From positions 1 through 59,735 of the forward strand of contig CACWJS010000003.1 of NCBI GenBank assembly GCA_902761275.1: a stretch of DNA of 59,735 bases. Reading direction: 5' to 3'. The notes beneath the pieces are model-generated. The model had not been told where the DNA came from and made no database searches. It worked only from the letters and a program-made list of their open reading frames with translations. Numbering within the stretch: the first letter of the stretch is position 1; each line of letters starts with the position of its first letter. The position numbers and the translations under genes were made by a program. Of the stretch, positions 36,624 to 44,968 are shown piece by piece. The stretch comes from an uncultured bacterium (GTDB lineage Bacteria; Verrucomicrobiota; Kiritimatiellia; RFP12; UBA1067).

Positions 36624-38006
36624 ATGAAAGTCAATGACCATATTTCCGTCCGCTATCTCCTCGCAATCGCGGGGTTAGGCGGGCTTCTCTACGGCATCGA
36701 CTTTGGCGTCATCGCCGCAGCGTCTCCCTACATCAAGGCACTCGGACTATTCACCGACGCCGAGCTTAGTTGGGTCGTCGGAGCAGTCCTCTTCGGCGGC
36801 ATCGTTTCATCGCTTACGGCGGGGATGCTTGCCGAGCGGTTCGGCAGGAAACGCATGATTGTCGCTGCGGCTGCGCTCTTCTTCGTGGCTGTTCCTACTG
36901 TCTGCCTTTCGGAAAAGTCTCTTTGGACGATGCTTTTCGGACGCGTCCTCCAGGGCATGAGCGCCGGATACATGGCCGTCGTCATGCCGATGTATCTTAC
37001 CGAGACCCTGCCGCCGGAGATTAGAGGACGCGGCACCGGCGTTTTCCAGTTCTGCCTCGGGCTTGGCCTTGTCGCGGCTGCTGCTGTCGGATATTTTGTC
37101 GCGAAGCTGTACGGCGCGGCGGACGCGCCGGCGGAGCTTGTCGCGGATGCCGCTAAATCCGCTGCGTGGAAGATGAACTTCTGGTGGACGCTCGCTCCTG
37201 TTGCGGCGCTTTTTTTCGGCAGTCTGCGGCTCCCGGAAAGCCCGGTGTGGGAGAAAAGGGTAAAGTGTGGGAGTGGAGGAGTGAGGGAGTGTGGGAGTGG
37301 AGGAGTTAACTCACCCACTCACCCACTCACCCACTCCCTCACTTTGAATTCCCGCCGCTATGTCGTGCCTTTTCTCTTGGCGGTCGCCGTCCTGACGCTC
37401 AACAAGACGACGGGGATGAGTTCCGTCACCAGCTATTCGGTGATGATATTTCAGAAGGCCGGTTTCGCCGGAGCTCTTGGGAATGTTGGCGACTTTGCGA
37501 TCAAGCTGACGAATCTCGTCGTCACGCTCGTCGCGGCGGCGATCATCGACCGCGTTGGCCGCACACGGCTCTTGAAGATCGGCACGGCGGGCATGACGCT
37601 CGGGCTTGCGGCAATTGGCGGCGTCCTTCTCGCCATTGAGCGTTTCGGAGTCGCTGCGAACAGCGTGACAGGGATTTTCTGTCTCGCGGCGTTTTTCGTG
37701 ATGCAGGTTTTTTACGCGCTGGGTCCCGGCATCTGCGTGTGGCTAGTCCTTTCCGAGCTGATGCCTTCGCGCATCCGCGCCAATGGCATGTCGATTGCGC
37801 TTTTCATGAACCAGTTCGTCGCGTGGGGGCTCGCGTCGTCGTTCCTGCCGTGGGTCAACGCCTGGGGATGGGCGTCGATGTTCTTCTTCTTCGCCGTTAA
37901 CGGAGTAATCTACTTTATTGTCTCGCTCTTCATCCCCGAGACCAGGGGCAAGACGCTGGAGGAGCTTGAACATCTTTTTGATAAAAAGCTTGGAGCTGAG
38001 AGCTGA
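36624..38006 (+). CDS. MFS sugar porter
   Basis: GGLLYGID.G, ERFGRK, PESP, DRVGR, PETRGKTLEE. Confidence 0.95.
   Translation: MKVNDHISVRYLLAIAGLGGLLYGIDFGVIAAASPYIKALGLFTDAELSWVVGAVLFGGIVSSLTAGMLAERFGRKRMIVAAAALFFVAVPTVCLSEKSLWTMLFGRVLQGMSAGYMAVVMPMYLTETLPPEIRGRGTGVFQFCLGLGLVAAAAVGYFVAKLYGAADAPAELVADAAKSAAWKMNFWWTLAPVAALFFGSLRLPESPVWEKRVKCGSGGVRECGSGGVNSPTHPLTHSLTLNSRRYVVPFLLAVAVLTLNKTTGMSSVTSYSVMIFQKAGFAGALGNVGDFAIKLTNLVVTLVAAAIIDRVGRTRLLKIGTAGMTLGLAAIGGVLLAIERFGVAANSVTGIFCLAAFFVMQVFYALGPGICVWLVLSELMPSRIRANGMSIALFMNQFVAWGLASSFLPWVNAWGWASMFFFFAVNGVIYFIVSLFIPETRGKTLEELEHLFDKKLGAES
37264..37343. repeat. in-frame 8-mer hairpin element in the MFS central loop
   Basis: AGTG(T/G/A)(G/A)GG x5 - AGTTAACT - CACCCACT x3 - CCCTCACT; translated CGSGGVRECGSGGVNSPTHPLTHSLT. 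Confidence 0.9.
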
Positions 38007-38056
38007 GAGCTTAGAGCTCAGAGCTTGAAGCTTAGAGCTTAGAGCTGGGAGCAGAG
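37987..38056 (+). repeat. AGCTNNG heptamer array 1 (~10 units)
   Basis: agcttgg agctgag agctgag agcttag...; supplies the MFS stop codon. Confidence 0.95.
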
Positions 38057-38067
38057 GAGAAGTGAGT

Positions 38068-38430
38068 ATGATAAAGAGTTATAGAGAACTGAAGGTTTGG
38101 CAAAAGGCCATGGACTTTGCAGAACATGTGTACAAGGTCCAGAGGCGCTTTCCTGCCGAGGAACGCTATGGCCTCTGCGACCAGCTGCGCCGTGCAGCAG
38201 TTTCCATTCCTTCTAATATCGCGGAAGGTCGTGGCAGGGATACGGCTAAGGACTTTTCGCACTTCCTGTCACTTGCCCGGGGCTCTTTAAATGAAGTCAC
38301 AACTCAGTTGGAACTGGCGGTTCGGCTTGGCTATCTTGATTCCGGAAGCGGCCTCGATGAGGAATCCCAGGAGATCGGGAAAATGCTGAATGCCATGATA
38401 CAACGTCTTAAACAATCAAAACAACCCTAA
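38068..38430 (+). CDS. four helix bundle protein (23S rRNA IVP / Avd-like family)
   Basis: SYRELKVWQKAM, FPAEERYGLCDQLRRAAVSIPSNIAEG, ARGSLNE. Confidence 0.95.
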   Translation: MIKSYRELKVWQKAMDFAEHVYKVQRRFPAEERYGLCDQLRRAAVSIPSNIAEGRGRDTAKDFSHFLSLARGSLNEVTTQLELAVRLGYLDSGSGLDEESQEIGKMLNAMIQRLKQSKQP

Positions 38431-38454
38431 GGAAAGGAAACGCTTAGTGACGGT

Positions 38455-38496
38455 AGCTCTCAGCTAAAAGCTAAAAGCTCCAAGCTCTAAGCTGAA
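38455..38496 (-). repeat. heptamer array 2, inverted (~6 units)
   Basis: agctctc agctaaa agctaaa agctcca agctcta agctgaa; complementary to the other arrays. Confidence 0.9.
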
Positions 38497-38501
38497 AAAC
38501 C

Positions 38502-39530
38502 ATGATAACTCAAACATCAATTAGCTACTACGGGCTCAACTACGTAGAACACGCCGAGGCGGACTTCAAGGAAATGAAGGCGCACGGCGTCACCCAGGTG
38601 ATTCTCGCAGTGACGGAGTTCGACTTCGACTTCTGGCGGCCGAACATCCCCGCCATCGTCGACAAGGCGCACGAGCTGGGGCTCCGCGTCCTCATCGACC
38701 CGTGGGGCAACGGCAAGTACTTTGGCGGCGAACAGGTCTCGAAGTTCCTTCAGGACAACGTCGAAAACCGCCAGGTCTCGGCCTTGACCGGCGAGAAGCT
38801 TCCCTACGCCTGCTTCAACACGAACAGCTATCGCGACTACTTCAAGAACTTCTGCACGACGCTCGCCCGCGAAGCGAAGCCCGACGGCTTCTTCTGGGAC
38901 GAGCCGCACTACGCCTTCCCGAAGGGCATCGCCTCCATCACTGGCGGCGTTGCGGACGACTGGACGTGCTATTGTCCCGTCTGCCGCAAGCGTTTCGAGG
39001 ACTACTATGGCTACCCGATGCCGCGCTACATGACGAACGACGTGAAGCAGTTCCGCTGGCGCGAGGCGCTCGTTGTCCTCTCCGAGACCTCGAAGGCGCT
39101 GAAGGAGATCGACCCGAAGCTGGAGATCACCTGCTGTGTCCACGCGACGCAGAACGGCTACTACGTCTCGGAGTATCGCGGCTACGACAATTGGGATATG
39201 GTTGGCGCGTGTCCTTATTTCGACGTGTTCTCGACGACGATCATCAACTGGGCGCTTCCCGAGGACTTCTTCCTCGACATCACGCGTCGCACGGTTGCCA
39301 TCGCCAAGAAGTACGGCAAGCAGTCCGAGCGCTGGCTAATGGGCTACTACAAGCAGCCGAAGGACTGGAACCAGGTTGCACGCTGGGTCGACCTCGCCGC
39401 CAAGGAGGGCGTTGACCGCCTTGCCGCCTGGACGTACCGCGGTGGCTACGGCACGGTCGTCGGCGCGCCCGATGCGCTTAAACTCTGGGATACAATTGGT
39501 GAGAACTATAGGAGGGTATTGGGGATTTAA
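38502..39530 (+). CDS. putative TIM-barrel glycoside hydrolase-like protein
   Basis: DGFFWDEPHY and CYCPVC motifs reminiscent of GH42-like barrels; no signal peptide. Confidence 0.6.
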   Translation: MITQTSISYYGLNYVEHAEADFKEMKAHGVTQVILAVTEFDFDFWRPNIPAIVDKAHELGLRVLIDPWGNGKYFGGEQVSKFLQDNVENRQVSALTGEKLPYACFNTNSYRDYFKNFCTTLAREAKPDGFFWDEPHYAFPKGIASITGGVADDWTCYCPVCRKRFEDYYGYPMPRYMTNDVKQFRWREALVVLSETSKALKEIDPKLEITCCVHATQNGYYVSEYRGYDNWDMVGACPYFDVFSTTIINWALPEDFFLDITRRTVAIAKKYGKQSERWLMGYYKQPKDWNQVARWVDLAAKEGVDRLAAWTYRGGYGTVVGAPDALKLWDTIGENYRRVLGI

Positions 39531-39592
39531 GCTTGGAGCTTAGAGCTGAGAGCTTAGAGCTTGGAGCTGAGAGCTTAGAGCTTGGAGCGGGG
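39530..39592 (+). repeat. heptamer array 3 (~9 units)
   Basis: Starts inside the TAA stop. Confidence 0.95.
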
Positions 39593-39600
39593 AGATTGGA

Positions 39601-40302
39601 ATGTCGGAATATTTGGAGAGAATTGTAGATGTCCTGCAGAGGGTTGAAGCGGAAGAGGCGGCGGCGCTTTCTTCTGCTTCGGACGCCGTTGCTGACGTAA
39701 TCTGCCGCGACGGAATCATCCATGTCTTCGGCTGCGGTCACTCCCATCTGCCTGCGCTTGACGCGTTCTATCGCGCTGGCGGGCTTGCATGTGTGTCGCC
39801 AGTCCTTGACGTTGACCTTATGCTGCATGACGGCGCGGCGAAGTCGAGCCGGATGGAGAAGATGCCGGGGATCGCGTCGGAAGTATATCGCCGCCACGGC
39901 GTGAAACAGGGCGACCTGTTCGTCGTCATATCGGCGAGCGGCAAGAACGCCGCGCCTGTGGAGATGCTTCGCGCCGCGAAGGCGGCAGGGGTAAAGACTG
40001 TAGCCGTTTCCTCGTCGGCGTACAAGCCGCATGGCGGTGTACTTCTGGACGAGGCGGACATTGCTGTCGATTGCAAAGTGCCGCATGGCGACGCAGTGAT
40101 CGACGTAGGCGAGGCAAAGATGGGCGGGCTTTCGACGTATGCCTCGCTTTTCATACTCAACACTGCGCTGATCGAAGGTGCGAAGAAGGCACTCGCGAGA
40201 GGCGTAACGCCGCCAGTCTACACGAGCGGCAACGTAGACGGCGGAACGGCGCGCAATGTCGCGCTGGAAGAGCGGTACTTCGGGAGGGTTAAGCATTTGT
40301 AG
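39601..40302 (+). CDS. SIS-domain sugar-phosphate isomerase-like protein
   Basis: FGCGHSH, YRAGGL, ISASGKN, SGNVDGG. Confidence 0.9.
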   Translation: MSEYLERIVDVLQRVEAEEAAALSSASDAVADVICRDGIIHVFGCGHSHLPALDAFYRAGGLACVSPVLDVDLMLHDGAAKSSRMEKMPGIASEVYRRHGVKQGDLFVVISASGKNAAPVEMLRAAKAAGVKTVAVSSSAYKPHGGVLLDEADIAVDCKVPHGDAVIDVGEAKMGGLSTYASLFILNTALIEGAKKALARGVTPPVYTSGNVDGGTARNVALEERYFGRVKHL

Positions 40303-40433
40303 CTTAGAGCTTGGAGCTTAGAGCTTGGAGCTTGGAGCTTAGAGCTTGGAGCTTAGAGCTTGGAGCTTAGAGCTTAGAGCTTGGAGCTTGGAGCTTAGAG
40401 CTTAGAGCTTAGAGCTTGGAGCTGGGAGCTTAG
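40301..40433 (+). repeat. heptamer array 4 (19 units)
   Basis: AGCTT(A/G)G repeats starting inside the TAG stop. Confidence 0.97.
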
Positions 40434-40434
40434 A

Positions 40435-41283
40435 GTGGGAGAGAATGTGGAAAAGAAACGCGTTAAGATAGCTGTGGTCGGCATGGTCGGCAAGTCCGTC
40501 TTCATGGAAGTCGAACGCTTCCACGAGGGTGGCGAGACTGTCATGGCTAGGTCGTGCCACGAAGATTGGGGCGGGAAGGGCTTCAACCAGGCCGTCGCGG
40601 CCGCGCGCCAGGATGCCGACGTTGCGTTTCTGGGCGCATGTGCGGAAAGAGACCGCGCGGCCATACTGTCTGACTTGGCTGGCGAGGCCGGCCTTTCGCT
40701 TAAGTTAGTTGGTCGCGACATCAACTCGGCGCTCGCGACGATCATTACCGACACGGCTGGGGCAACGCAGGTGACCTGCTGCGCAGGCGCGGAACTTGAG
40801 CCGGCCGACGTAGACGCGTTTGTCGACGAGATTGCATCCGCCGACATTCTTCTGCTGAGCAATGAGGTGCCGGAATCCGTAAACCTGCGCGCTTCCGAGA
40901 TAGCGGAGCAAAGGGGCGTAAGAATCGTGATGAACCCTGCGCCGTCGCGTCCGCTGCCAGACGTGCTGAAGCGTCGTGTCTCGCTCTTCACGCCAAACGA
41001 GTTCGAGACGGCGGGTCTTGGAGATGCCCCTGGCGAGGTGGTGACGACGCTTGGCGAGAAGGGCTGCCGCATCCGCTCGACTGGCGAGGTTGTCCCGCCT
41101 GCTCCCAGCGTCAAGGCGGTCGACGCCACTGGCGCGGGCGACACGTTCAACGGCGTTCTCGCGGTGCGCATTGCGGAAGGCGCGCCGCTTGCCGAAGCCT
41201 GTCGCGCCGCGAACGATGCGGCGGCCAAAGAGGTGTCTGTCCGCTACGTCTTGCCTGCTATACCGTATCGTAGAAGATCATGA
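40435..41283 (+). CDS. PfkB/ribokinase-family sugar kinase (start uncertain)
   Basis: GGKGFNQAVAA, NPAP, TPNEFE, DATGAGDTF. Confidence 0.9.
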   Translation: MGENVEKKRVKIAVVGMVGKSVFMEVERFHEGGETVMARSCHEDWGGKGFNQAVAAARQDADVAFLGACAERDRAAILSDLAGEAGLSLKLVGRDINSALATIITDTAGATQVTCCAGAELEPADVDAFVDEIASADILLLSNEVPESVNLRASEIAEQRGVRIVMNPAPSRPLPDVLKRRVSLFTPNEFETAGLGDAPGEVVTTLGEKGCRIRSTGEVVPPAPSVKAVDATGAGDTFNGVLAVRIAEGAPLAEACRAANDAAAKEVSVRYVLPAIPYRRRS

Positions 41284-41301: not shown

Positions 41302-42849
41302 ATGCACAATGCAATTAAACTCGCTGCGGTTTGCACCGCTCTTCTGCCGTTCGCCGCGTTCGCCGGGAATAAGGCGAATCCCGACGCAATAGAACTTGCG
41401 CCGTTGCCCATGCCGGTGCAGTTCAAGGCCGACATAGACAAGCCGGTAGCTTTCGACGCATCCACGACGGTCGCTCTTGAATGTCCCGACGCCAAAGGCG
41501 CGGAATGGCTCGCCGTTCATTTCAGGGAATGGTACGGAGACCAGTCGCCGAAGGTCGTTGCCTCCAACCTTTCAACCTTTCAACCTTTCAACCTTTCAAC
41601 CTCCCCGGAGGCCTATTCCATGGCATCCGGCGTGTCGGGAGTCAAGATTGCTGCTCGCACTCTTGCGGGCATTAGGTGGGCGGCGTACACATTGCGGCAG
41701 CTCGCCATTGCGAAGCGCGGCACGTTCAAGACCGAGGGACGCATACTGCCGACGCTGGAGATTTCTGACTCTCCGCACCTCGCGTTCCGCGCAGTCCATC
41801 TCTGCTGGTTCCCCGAGGTCAGGCCGCAGCAGATGGAACGCGCGATTCGCCTCGCGGCGCTTCTCAAGTTCAACTACGCGATCATCGAGCCGTGGGGCAT
41901 GTACGCGAGCGAGAAGCATCCGTGGTGGCATTGGCCGAATCCGACGATGACGAAGGAGGAGGTGCGTCGTCTCGCGGCGATAGGACGCGACCTCGGCATC
42001 ACGCTCATCCCGCAGATCAACGCGTTCGGGCACGCCTCGTCGTCGCGCGGCTGCACGCTTAAGCACATGGTGCTTGACCTCTCCCCAGAATACGAGCCGC
42101 TGTTCGAGCCGGGCGGGTGGAACTGGTGTCTTACCAACCCCGAGACACAGCGGGTGCTACGCGAGCTGATTGCCGAGATGCACGAGGATTTCGGCAATCC
42201 ACCGTTCTTCCACCTCGGATGCGACGAGGCGCAGCCGCCGACGTGTCCGGAGTGCCGCAAGCGGCCGTACGGCGAACTCGTCTGCGAGCACATCGTCGGT
42301 CTCGCCGACTTCGTCAAGTCACGCGGCGCGAGGGCGATGATCTGGCACGACATGCTGCTTGAGAAGGGCGATCCTCGCTGGAAGGGCTTTGTTCACTTTG
42401 GCTCGAAGACGACTGCGACGCTCGCAGACACGCTTTCCAAGGACGTGATCATCTGCGACTGGCAGTATTCCTACGGCAACATGAAGGAAGCTCGCGGCGA
42501 TTGGCCGACGATGGGCTATTTCAAGGAGAAGGGCTTTGCCGTCGCAGGATGCCCGTGGATGAACTACAACTCGATGAAACCGATGGCCGACTACATCGCC
42601 AAGATCGGCGGTTTCGGTTTCATTGAGACGACGTGGCACCATTTGCGCGGCGACGACTGGATCAACATGTACAGATACGCCTCGGCCGCCGCGTGGGGGA
42701 CTTCCGTTCCGCAGACTCCGCCGATGTACAACACCCCGTTCGGCAATGCCCTGCGTCTCGTAGGACACGACATGAAGACGACGGACTATCTTGACACGGG
42801 TCACCTCAACTACCAGGTGCCGCCGGGATGGTGGGTGGATAACAATTAG
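41302..42849 (+). CDS. GH20 beta-N-acetylhexosaminidase-like protein, secreted
   Basis: Signal peptide; ISDSPHLAFRAVH; HLGCDE catalytic motif; IWHDM. Confidence 0.88.
   Translation: MHNAIKLAAVCTALLPFAAFAGNKANPDAIELAPLPMPVQFKADIDKPVAFDASTTVALECPDAKGAEWLAVHFREWYGDQSPKVVASNLSTFQPFNLSTSPEAYSMASGVSGVKIAARTLAGIRWAAYTLRQLAIAKRGTFKTEGRILPTLEISDSPHLAFRAVHLCWFPEVRPQQMERAIRLAALLKFNYAIIEPWGMYASEKHPWWHWPNPTMTKEEVRRLAAIGRDLGITLIPQINAFGHASSSRGCTLKHMVLDLSPEYEPLFEPGGWNWCLTNPETQRVLRELIAEMHEDFGNPPFFHLGCDEAQPPTCPECRKRPYGELVCEHIVGLADFVKSRGARAMIWHDMLLEKGDPRWKGFVHFGSKTTATLADTLSKDVIICDWQYSYGNMKEARGDWPTMGYFKEKGFAVAGCPWMNYNSMKPMADYIAKIGGFGFIETTWHHLRGDDWINMYRYASAAAWGTSVPQTPPMYNTPFGNALRLVGHDMKTTDYLDTGHLNYQVPPGWWVDNN
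41563..41602 (+). repeat. in-frame TTCAACCT x5 inside the GH20 gene
   Basis: Translated SNLSTFQPFNLST. Confidence 0.92.
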
Positions 42850-42903
42850 CTTGGAGCTTAGAGCTGAGAGCTTGGAGCGTAGAGCTGAGAGCTTGGAGCT
42901 GGG
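42848..42903 (+). repeat. heptamer array 5 (8 units)
   Basis: Starts inside the TAG stop. Confidence 0.95.
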
Positions 42904-44883: not shown

Positions 44884-44968
44884 AGCTTGGCTTGTCCGCC
44901 GTAGCTCCGTTAGAAGCGAAGGCGGAAGCTTAGAGCTTAGAGCTTGGAGCTTTGAGCTTAGCGCTGAA
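44884..44968 (+). repeat. heptamer array 6, interrupted by a REP-like palindrome
   Basis: agcttgg + TCCGCCGTAGCT-N8-AGCGAAGGCGGA + 5 more units. Confidence 0.88.

Follow-up and report, generated by a model that had tools for sequence, protein, structure and literature searches.

What the protein family of the rRNA intervening sequences (IVS) does and where it comes from has been a question since the 1990s, and the origin of the tandem heptamers of bacteria is a second one. The locus described here bears on both, as it appears to hold a cassette of the rRNA type that was recently inserted into an ordinary operon. It lies in a stretch of 59,735 nucleotides from an uncultured bacterium, which was analysed as a whole and is referred to as the window. 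In close relatives the same junction is found filled, empty or differently filled, which offers a natural experiment on how a cassette arrives and how its arms evolve. Moreover, a set of rules that recurs across the family, namely that the arms are inverted and have a 7-nt period, that the unit is specific to the locus, that the 5' arm is G-rich and that wobble bias is absent, turns what was a vague resemblance into a testable one. Based on this comparison we consider that the segment is probably an acquired cassette, built like the 23S rRNA IVS that carry an open reading frame (ORF).

A preliminary description of this DNA had reported a four-helix-bundle gene between inverted heptamer arrays inside an operon, and this layout was confirmed (Table 1). 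Tandem Repeats Finder detected an array of period 7 on either side of the gene, at 37993-38056 (9.1 copies, 79% matches) and at 38462-38497 (5.1 copies, 82% matches), and additionally called 37987-38052 and 38455-38498 as repeats of period 21. The top inverted pair joins 38008-38046 with 38455-38493 (39 nt, 82% complementary, separation 408 nt), and the 5' heptamer array ends 12 nt upstream of the cassette-gene ATG. The double-unit pattern AGCTNNGAGCTNNG had 41 matches in the window, where 0.21 would be expected; 40 of them are on the + strand, and the sole match on the - strand (38480-38493) is within the 3' arm. As RNA, the two arms are predicted to form a duplex of -53.6 kcal/mol, compared to -20.9 ± 4.8 kcal/mol when the downstream arm was shuffled 300 times (z = -6.8), and both arrays are also paired in the minimum-energy fold of 37960-38520 (z = -3.6).

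Table 1. Position of the cassette, its parts, the adjoining operon genes and the other spacer arrays in the window.
Feature	Coordinates	Strand	Remarks
Cassette	37980..38501	+	About 520 nt; bounds from comparison with the empty junctions in L007, L009 and L013
5' arm	37987..38056	+	About 10 AGCTNNG heptamers; G-rich partner of the arm pair
3' arm	38455..38497	+	C-rich; about 6 units, the complement of those in the 5' arm; 4 nt separate its end from the next gene start
Putative Shine-Dalgarno-like GAGGAG	38054..38059	+	8 nt 5' of the cassette-gene ATG, on the loop side of the 5' arm; read from the sequence
Four-helix-bundle gene (PF05635 / TIGR02436 family)	38068..38430	+	120 aa; alternative GTG start at 38062
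MFS sugar transporter gene, upstream in the operon	36624..38006	+	PF00083, E 1.3e-66
Downstream operon gene	38502..39530	+	342 aa; no Pfam match
AGCTNNG-type spacer array	39530..39588	+	8.4 copies; -61.3 kcal/mol with the 3' arm
AGCTNNG-type spacer array between SIS and PfkB genes	40301..40435	+	19.3 copies; -64.1 kcal/mol with the 3' arm
AGCTNNG-type spacer array 3' of a GH20 gene	42848..42900	+	7.6 copies; -60.9 kcal/mol with the 3' arm
AGCTNNG-type spacer array	44927..44965	+	5.6 copies; -51.0 kcal/mol with the 3' arm

The ORF was assigned to PF05635 with an E-value of 1.4e-40 (138.2 bits, cut-off 33.8) and to TIGR02436 with 134.8 bits (cut-off 24). Among solved structures, 2GSC (XCC0516, five chains) is its nearest relative with E 2.1e-27, and 2RLD comes next. 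Diversity-generating retroelements (DGRs) have an accessory protein, Avd, with a homologous four-helix-bundle fold; in the passages seen of PMC10053308 it works with nucleic acid in these retroelements. The cassette protein matches the Avd profiles weakly, but stays below both curated cut-offs (bAvd, 28.2 bits against 40; DivGenRetAVD, 31.1 against 80), and an identity as Avd was rejected. A DGR was rejected as well: there is no reverse transcriptase gene next to the cassette, the only RVT_1 match of the genome is on contig C157, and the neighbours are genes of sugar metabolism.

The placement of the gene inside an operon also held. The adjoining genes are co-directional with it, and between 36400 and 40500 no promoter-like site was found (1.0 expected) and terminator-like sites were at chance level (5 against 4.0 expected); neither a private promoter nor a private terminator of the cassette was identified. 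Together with the overlapping stop and start codons in relatives, these observations fit an operon. The last six codons and the stop codon (38004-38006) of the transporter gene fall within the 5' arm, and the C terminus of the transporter departs from that of its relatives from the insertion point onward. The protein encoded downstream is 87-97% identical across eight related genomes, and no Shine-Dalgarno-like motif was found between the 3' arm and its ATG. Counting the 5' arm, the operon has five spacer arrays of the AGCTNNG type, of which the other four are also in + orientation. A search of sequencing runs turned up no RNA run that contains the stretch; one run (X17), labelled metatranscriptomic and probably of DNA, covered parts of both flanking genes and left 37912-38517 uncovered; it is uninformative on expression.

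An empty junction in relatives, which had been proposed as a check, was found in three related species. In L007 (genome G003), L009 (G019) and L013 (G020) the stop codon of the transporter gene overlaps the ATG of the next gene, with zero spacer and no cassette, and L008, L010 and L012 have spacers of 74-98 nt without a cassette gene. This comparison indicates that the two operon genes were originally translationally coupled, and that the segment of about 520 nt between them is an acquired insertion. Visual comparison of the filled with the empty junctions showed only an A-rich stretch on both sides of the insertion and no clean target-site duplication. In a different species the same junction is filled differently (L016, G030): its gene is 76.5-78% identical to the one in the window, and its arms are of the GGGTTAG and CTAACCC types, compared to AGCTTAG and its complement in the window. 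Three of the seven unit positions differ, and the cross-arm score between the two loci, 7.5, is at background. On contig C125 two copies were found whose shared homology begins at the arm, which shows the arms and the gene to be the unit of duplication; they move and duplicate together. Among contigs with at least 90% likeness to the stretch, from four sequencing runs, no joint that skips the cassette was found; it was bridged by contigs of X2 (a 1512-nt piece with 69 differences) and X5 (a 685-nt piece with 5 differences). In X3, one contig departs from the stretch at 38497 and a second joins it at 38466; we take this for assembly branching at repeats and not for variants.

The arrangement could in principle be incidental, with arrays that are generic, fast-evolving spacer repeats, one of them inverted by chance, beside an unrelated gene. 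Consistent with this, arrays of the heptamer type fill another four operon spacers and are equally good pairing partners for the 3' arm. The genome as a whole has 434 arrays of period 6-9, and of 311 neighbouring pairs 29 are inverted and 31 direct. We compared the flanks of family members by their local-alignment complementarity against cross-locus pairs; this replaced RNAduplex on long flanks, which was a poor statistic (null mean -82.6 kcal/mol). Stable inheritance of the gene without arms, named in the preliminary description as the finding that would speak against it, was not the pattern that emerged. In the genus, of which 61 related genomes were sampled, complementarity exceeded the 95th percentile of the cross-locus controls at 28 of 32 loci and the 99th at 17, and in a set covering Planctomycetota, Acidobacteriota, Bacteroidota, Clostridia, Proteobacteria and other groups it did so at 68 and 49 of 76 loci, respectively. 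Significant arms were missing at 4 loci of the genus set and 8 of the cross-phylum set. In the genome of the window a score of at least 17 was reached by 22 of 2359 approximate genes, and among these were all three complete PF05635 genes and a distant relative of 229 aa. At the junction in G030, moreover, both arms carry the changed heptamer together. An incidental origin is already strongly disfavoured by these results, and we hold it to be very improbable.

Nearly all members of the PF05635 family, in this genus and in many phyla, bear such arms, and the arms follow common rules. Among upstream arms 55 of 111, and among downstream arms 66 of 106, had a dominant period of 7 or 14, compared to 0 of 113, 3 of 107 and 7 of 102 control stretches. 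The 5' arm is the G-rich one in 85 of 93 loci, and the cassette gene is sense-oriented in 51 of 63 co-directional contexts. The unit sequences of the cross-phylum set have no common core. The unit varies from locus to locus, yet the two arms within a locus remain complementary.

How this complementarity is maintained bears on the nature of the element. Among the arm mismatches at 93 loci, 162 were G.U and 152 A.C (p = 0.61), and in the genus set the numbers were 57 and 48. As selection on a sense-strand RNA helix should give an excess of G.U, the missing wobble excess counts against a tailored RNA stem, and so does the order of the unit variants, which is not mirrored between the arms in the window (permutation p = 0.87) and was mirrored in just 15 of the 47 loci tested. 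Alternative partners count against it too: the 3' arm pairs with the four other operon arrays at -51.0 to -64.1 kcal/mol, as well as or better than with the 5' arm, and the 5' arm folds on itself (-31.6 kcal/mol) because AGCT is a palindrome. The stem that encloses the gene is therefore not the sole structure available to the RNA.

Some of these observations would also suit a mobile element with hairpin ends that acts at the DNA level. Insertion, excision or repair might then make use of the arrays as a cruciform or a hairpin in single-stranded DNA, or the arrays might be repeats laid down at insertion; the RNA stem would be a by-product without specific RNA processing. Besides the lack of wobble bias and the unmirrored unit order (32 of 47 loci, this one included), the turnover of the arms, which is much faster than that of the protein, argues for such an element, as do the filled, empty and differently filled junctions among related species and the duplicated copies bounded at the arm. 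The same genome additionally holds 14 pairs of arrays that form gene-less hairpins with loops of 12-130 nt, and encodes IS200/RAYT-like Y1 transposases with palindromes on their flanks. However, the arms vary between copies, unlike terminal repeats recognised by a transposase, a clear target-site duplication was not apparent at the boundaries, and the cassette encodes no recombinase. The predominant sense orientation points to dependence on host transcription, and members of the family in rRNA have been processed as RNA in experiments, according to the passages seen of PMC4990558. We regard a purely DNA-level element as possible, though somewhat unlikely.

It had also been proposed that the product of the gene may recognise its own repeat arms. 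In that case the heptamer arrays, in RNA or in DNA, would be the binding site of a pentamer of this four-helix-bundle protein, which would regulate or mobilise the cassette. In line with this, the arrays have a 7-nt periodicity and are tightly linked to the gene across phyla, the solved relatives (2GSC, 2RLD) are five-chain assemblies, and the homologous Avd works with nucleic acid. Similar arms are indeed found with very similar proteins: a cross-arm score of at least 17 was obtained for 40% of the pairs with at least 70% protein identity and for 1-4% of those below 60%, and where proteins are less than about 70% identical the cross-locus arm score is at background. Shared descent alone would give the same result in close relatives, however, and in general the arms diverge far faster than the protein. 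The G030 copy, with its 78% identical protein and changed units at background score, and the missing common core both argue against recognition of the arms, and this part of the earlier proposal is not supported; we find such binding quite unlikely.

The other part, an IVS-like element in mRNA, is supported by its anatomy, that is, the protein family, the ORF in the loop and the heptamers upstream of it. The closest described counterpart is the IVS in helix 45 of the Coxiella burnetii 23S rRNA, for which the passages seen of PMC4990558 give a length of 428 nt, a stem of 28-bp inverted repeats, an S23p ORF and tandem GACAGAT heptamers of variable copy number before its start codon; they also cite Ralph and McClelland 1993 for 23S rRNA IVS with an ORF in Leptospira. 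As in these IVS, a PF05635 ORF lies here in the loop of a stem of terminal inverted repeats, and as in Coxiella the heptamers directly precede the start codon and the element is of similar size (428 nt compared to about 520 nt; PMC4990558, in part). The host differs, being the spacer of a polycistronic mRNA, between the MFS transporter gene and the 342-aa gene, and not a helix of 23S or 16S rRNA. The Coxiella IVS also has fewer units, 2-4 compared to about 10 and 6 in the cassette arms, and according to the same passages of PMC4990558 it is cleaved by RNase III in vitro with mapped ends within the stem. A gene for RNase III is present in the genome of the window (C51:25296-25661). Among open-licence PMC papers and bioRxiv preprints, none was found in which inverted heptamer arrays are connected with PF05635 genes outside rRNA.

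As an acquired IVS-like cassette, the segment would consist of a PF05635 gene with its own ribosome-binding site between inverted arrays of one heptamer, wedged into a coupled pair of operon genes. It may be a selfish or passenger element that is transcribed together with the operon. In the transcript the arms could zip into an imperfect duplex of about 40 bp with the gene looped out. Such a duplex is likely to serve as a substrate of RNase III, by analogy with the rRNA IVS. We infer that the mRNA may be processed at the cassette; cutting would free the RNA of the loop and leave the operon mRNA in two pieces, divided at this point. The complementarity of the arms would be upheld mainly by turnover of the arrays at the DNA level, through slippage and exchange between the arms, and base-by-base selection on the RNA would not be its main keeper.

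Small elements that form hairpins in intergenic DNA are known as MITEs, REP/RAYT elements and integron attC sites; among them gene-less and gene-carrying forms coexist, and recognition may be by structure rather than by sequence. The cassette is unlike them in that its arms are tandem arrays with a locus-specific unit and that it encodes no transposase or integrase, and it is unlike transposons or MITEs with terminal inverted repeats in that its terminal repeats are not conserved among copies. Its arms also resemble the heptamer arrays (STRR-like) of other bacteria in their head-to-tail 7-nt spacer units, of which there are many copies in this genome. The passages seen of PMC4692102 describe GGGAATC arrays in Xanthomonas, with 70-75 convergent (inverted) pairs, and GGGGA(C/T)T arrays in Nostoc/Anabaena, and those of PMC4679880 describe TAACTGA arrays in Beggiatoaceae, cyanobacteria and Bacteroidetes. 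In both, the 7-nt units stand in tandem between genes, often just 5' of starts, and the arrays vary in length between strains. In contrast, these passages mention no four-helix-bundle gene or IVS, and they describe one unit per genome (PMC4692102, PMC4679880), compared to 66 unit families of period 7-8 in this genome, which has 278 arrays of period 7-8 with at least 3.5 copies.

It is conceivable, though we think it unlikely, that the PF05635 cassettes and the similarly bracketed GxxExxY/PDDEXK_3 cassettes belong to a single, very widespread class of mobile hairpins, as those of its members that carry a gene. The unexplained tandem heptamers seen in many bacteria would then be gene-less derivatives and single-arm remnants of this class, and the rRNA IVS would be no more than its insertions into rRNA. 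Synthesis or renewal of the arms would take place in the DNA, for instance through templated addition of repeats to the two 3' ends of a break, or through hairpin-templated repair. Such a mechanism would account for the near-universal G-rich 5' arm, for units that are specific to the locus and for the missing wobble bias.

Some further features of the arrays were noted. Stop codons in all three frames occur in 32 of 91 G-rich arms, where shuffles would give about 17. They were rejected as an explanation of the 7-nt period because they are not defining: 19 of the 91 arms have none. The median distance from the upstream stop codon to the arm start is -1 nt, and 66 of 82 lie within 30 nt, which is partly an artefact because ORFs were called crudely and arrays that contain stops end any open frame entering them. 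In co-directional spacers of the whole genome, 98 arrays have the G-rich and 69 the C-rich strand in sense, a weak bias obtained with crude gene calls. A few ordinary genes of this genome, among them a trpB-like gene and an MFS gene, also lie between inverted pairs of arrays.

The sugar-use genes of the window form a run on the + strand according to gene calls and Pfam, and a four-helix-bundle gene lies within this run in a ~520-nt segment (37980-38501), here called the cassette. Among solved structures, 2GSC (E 2.1e-27) and 2RLD, both with five chains, are nearest to its protein. The array downstream of the gene (3′ arm) is the reverse complement of the upstream one (5′ arm), and among 41 matches to the AGCTNNG double-unit in the window (0.21 expected) the sole minus-strand one falls in the 3′ array. 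This bears out the preliminary description, which had placed ten AGCTNNG units before the gene and six complementary units after it. The imperfect stem of ~40 bp that it proposed can also form, as the top arm pair spans 39 nt at 82% complementarity and the arm-arm duplex has an energy of −53.6 kcal/mol, compared to −20.9 ± 4.8 for shuffles. The first units of the 5′ arm encode the final codons and stop of the transporter gene. The ATG of the 342-aa gene lies 4 nt past the 3′ arm, and no Shine-Dalgarno-like motif could be read in the sequence before it. The unit is spread through the whole operon, with 7 of the 12 strict AGCTNNG arrays of the genome falling in the window.

Features of the window and of other contigs (C numbers) of the same genome, G000
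Feature	Location	Strand	Evidence or remark
MFS transporter gene	window 36624-38006	+	Pfam
Octamer array hairpin in transporter gene	window 37264-37336		GGAGTGGA, 4.6 copies, then near-complement ACTCACCC, 3.5 copies
5′ arm, period-7 array, 9.1 copies	window 37993-38056		Tandem Repeats Finder; ten AGCTNNG units if counted from 37987
Cassette ORF, 120 aa, between transporter and 342-aa genes	window 38068-38430		PF05635 E 1.4e-40; TIGR02436 134.8 bits
3′ arm, period-7 array, 5.1 copies	window 38462-38497		Tandem Repeats Finder; ~six units from 38455
342-aa protein gene, without Pfam match	window 38502-39530	+	Gene calls, Pfam
Spacer after 342-aa gene	window 39530-39588		AGCTTAG-type
SIS-domain protein, PfkB kinase and GH20 hydrolase genes	same operon run	+	Pfam
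Octamer array in GH20 gene	window 41565-41602		CAACCTTT, 4.8 copies, 100% matches
Complete PF05635 gene	C16:50498-50914		Inverted octamer arrays, ~100 nt per side
Complete PF05635 gene	C125:7189-7563		Inverted hexamer/heptamer arrays
PF13366 gene	C6:6786-7193		Inverted-flank score 31.5
PF13366 gene	C60:4386-4763		Inverted-flank score 22.5
PF13366 gene	C60:2425-2892		Inverted-flank score 17.5
PF13366 gene	C1:85943-86284		Inverted-flank score 36
Y1 transposase gene	C100:19565-20641		IS200/RAYT-like, by eye (HxH motif region)
Y1 transposase gene	C57:13201-14328		IS200/RAYT-like, by eye (HxH motif region)
Giant secreted protein gene	C48:9431-16333		Paralogue of C12 gene
Giant secreted protein gene	C12:21533-27553		Paralogue of C48 gene

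The 342-aa gene is present in 10 of 61 related genomes, in which we compared its junction with the transporter gene. An empty junction in relatives, which the preliminary description had suggested looking for, was found in three species (loci L007, L009 and L013 in genomes G003, G019 and G020), where the transporter stop overlaps the next ATG with zero spacer. Three other species (L008/G006, L010/G028, L012/G017) have spacers of 74-98 nt without the cassette gene, one resembling a gene-less array hairpin and one a single C-rich array, and at L011 and L014 different genes lie upstream of the 342-aa gene. The closest species by identity of both flanking genes, G003 and G006, both lack the cassette gene, and we therefore take the tight junction to be ancestral and the cassette derived. 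Genome G030 (L016) carries a four-helix-bundle gene at the same junction, with an identity of 76.5% in tblastn and 78% in a global alignment. We conclude that the segment is a real, acquired cassette of the type found as intervening sequences (IVS) in rRNA.

The arms of G030 are GGGTTAG-type upstream and CTAACCC-type downstream, compared to AGCTTAG-type and its complement in the window, so that 3 of 7 unit positions differ on both sides; across the two loci the arms mismatch (cross score 7.5 versus own scores of 21.5 and 37). The earlier idea of a protein reading its own arms finds no support here, since two copies at one junction, 78% identical, have different units. Arm units across the cross-phylum set of loci have no evident common core. 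Judged from these sequences, self-recognition of the arms is unlikely; structure-specific binding by the protein is possible. The spacer after the 342-aa gene is AAGTGTA-type in G003, CTAGAAA-type in G019 and AAAAGT-type in G030, and such spacer arrays are replaced completely between species of one genus.

An inverted-flank score of at least 17 was reached by just 22 of 2359 approximate genes of G000, among them each of the three complete PF05635 genes and, on contig C26, a distant relative of 229 aa. PF05635 matches were obtained in 43 of the 61 genus genomes. From 29 best-per-genome loci and four others, L035 was left out because its contig ends inside the gene; 992 cross-locus pairings served as the control for the 32 scored, of which 28 lay above the 95th percentile and 17 above the 99th, and L031, L040, L041 and L044 did not exceed the 95th. 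A 12-sequence alignment run against species-representative genomes gave 604 relatives, and for the 76 of the best 80 with sufficient flank, 5700 cross-locus pairs were the reference: 68 exceeded the 95th percentile and 49 the 99th. The two sets overlap slightly (L046/L025, L047/L027 and L060/L030 are the same genomes, with proteins 96-100% identical). The arms consist of tandem arrays, and the dominant self-match period was 7 or 14 in 55/111 upstream and 66/106 downstream flanks and 8 in a further 13 and 10, compared to 0/113, 3/107 and 7/102 in control stretches. The median arm length was 37 nt, with a median gap of 21 nt from the end of the 5′ arm to the start codon. The cassette is typical of a class that spans phyla and is seemingly undescribed in print outside rRNA. 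The best 80 relatives also included L121, from a Methanophagales archaeon MAG (JAUWNY010000121.1), with only 69 nt of contig upstream of the gene, leaving the flanks unscored.

The IVS of Coxiella burnetii is described as lying in 23S rRNA helix 45, with terminal inverted repeats that form a stem of 28 bp and, before the start of the IVS-encoded PF05635 protein S23p, GACAGAT heptamers in tandem (two to three, and one degenerate copy) whose number varies by strain (PMC4990558). Each of these anatomical features is common to this IVS and the cassette, except the rRNA host. Insertions in rRNA of CPR bacteria are also reported to contain PF05635 ORFs (PMC11270868). Abundant bacterial heptamer arrays have been reported, with 70-75 inverted pairs in Xanthomonas (PMC4692102, PMC4679880); a term search of these two papers returned no mention of the PF05635 family. 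Full-text searches of open-licence papers and preprints found no paper in which inverted heptamer arrays are linked to PF05635 genes outside rRNA. The gene was also considered as a retroelement accessory gene (Avd), which we rejected as the Avd profile scores under the cut-offs and the sole reverse transcriptase match of the genome is on another contig.

Action of the cassette in RNA is the best supported reading, as the cassette would be co-transcribed with the operon, the arms in the transcript could pair as an imperfect duplex of ~40 bp, the genome has an RNase III gene and rRNA members are processed in this way. By analogy with these members, cutting of the duplex by RNase III is plausible. 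Three tests could have lent further strength to this reading, and all failed to do so. Among mismatched positions in the arms there was no wobble excess (162 G.U versus 152 A.C in 93 loci, p 0.61; 57 versus 48 in the genus set), which gives no hint that wobble pairs were selected for in the sense RNA. Permuting 7-mers within one arm lowered the best fit significantly in just 15 of 47 loci, and unit order in the window arms was not mirrored (p 0.87); the two arms simply carry one unit family in opposite directions and do not mirror each other unit by unit. Pairing of the 3′ arm with four other same-heptamer arrays further along the operon is at least equally good (−51.0 to −64.1 kcal/mol), and the 5′ arm folds on itself (−31.6 kcal/mol) because the AGCT core is palindromic. 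We therefore think that complementarity is maintained mainly by DNA-level turnover, as arrays slip and the two arms exchange sequence, and the RNA duplex may be a tolerated or useful consequence of it.

The cassette behaves as a single unit; contig C125 has two copies at a distance of 3.6 kb, and their shared homology starts at the arm, not before. The arms diverge faster than the protein: cross-locus fit was at background under ~60% protein identity, and the share of pairs with a cross score of at least 17 was 17% for identities of 60-70% and 40% from 70% upwards. The gene was in sense in 51 of 63 contexts with both neighbours co-directional, based on crude ORF calls (18 loci incomplete; L039, a broken gene, excluded). 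The G-rich arm was the 5′ arm in 85 of 93 loci, a rule accounted for by neither the RNA nor the DNA-turnover view. A possible reason is that a C-rich arm, if it came first in the transcript, would lie open to Rho loading until the partner arm had been transcribed. By eye, short-loop array hairpins of G000 seem to keep the same G-rich-first order.

The genome (3.4 Mb) contains 434 arrays of period 6-9 with at least three copies, of which 278 have period 7-8, in 66 unit families, and fourteen inverted array pairs with 12-130 nt loops are gene-less hairpins. The octamer hairpin in the transporter gene is in frame, gene-less, and encodes the central cytoplasmic loop, which in seven related species is similar in length and unrelated in sequence. 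The GH20 array falls in the N-terminal GH20b domain match and reads as a repeated peptide. All four small PF13366 genes (PDDEXK_3, GxxExxY-type) are bracketed by inverted repeats and form a second small-gene family with the looped-out layout. Both Y1 transposase genes are flanked by palindromic repeat copies, like REP/RAYT systems. The giant secreted proteins (2000-2300 aa) have identical N-termini, and the same 26-nt palindrome lies on the upstream and downstream sides of each gene.
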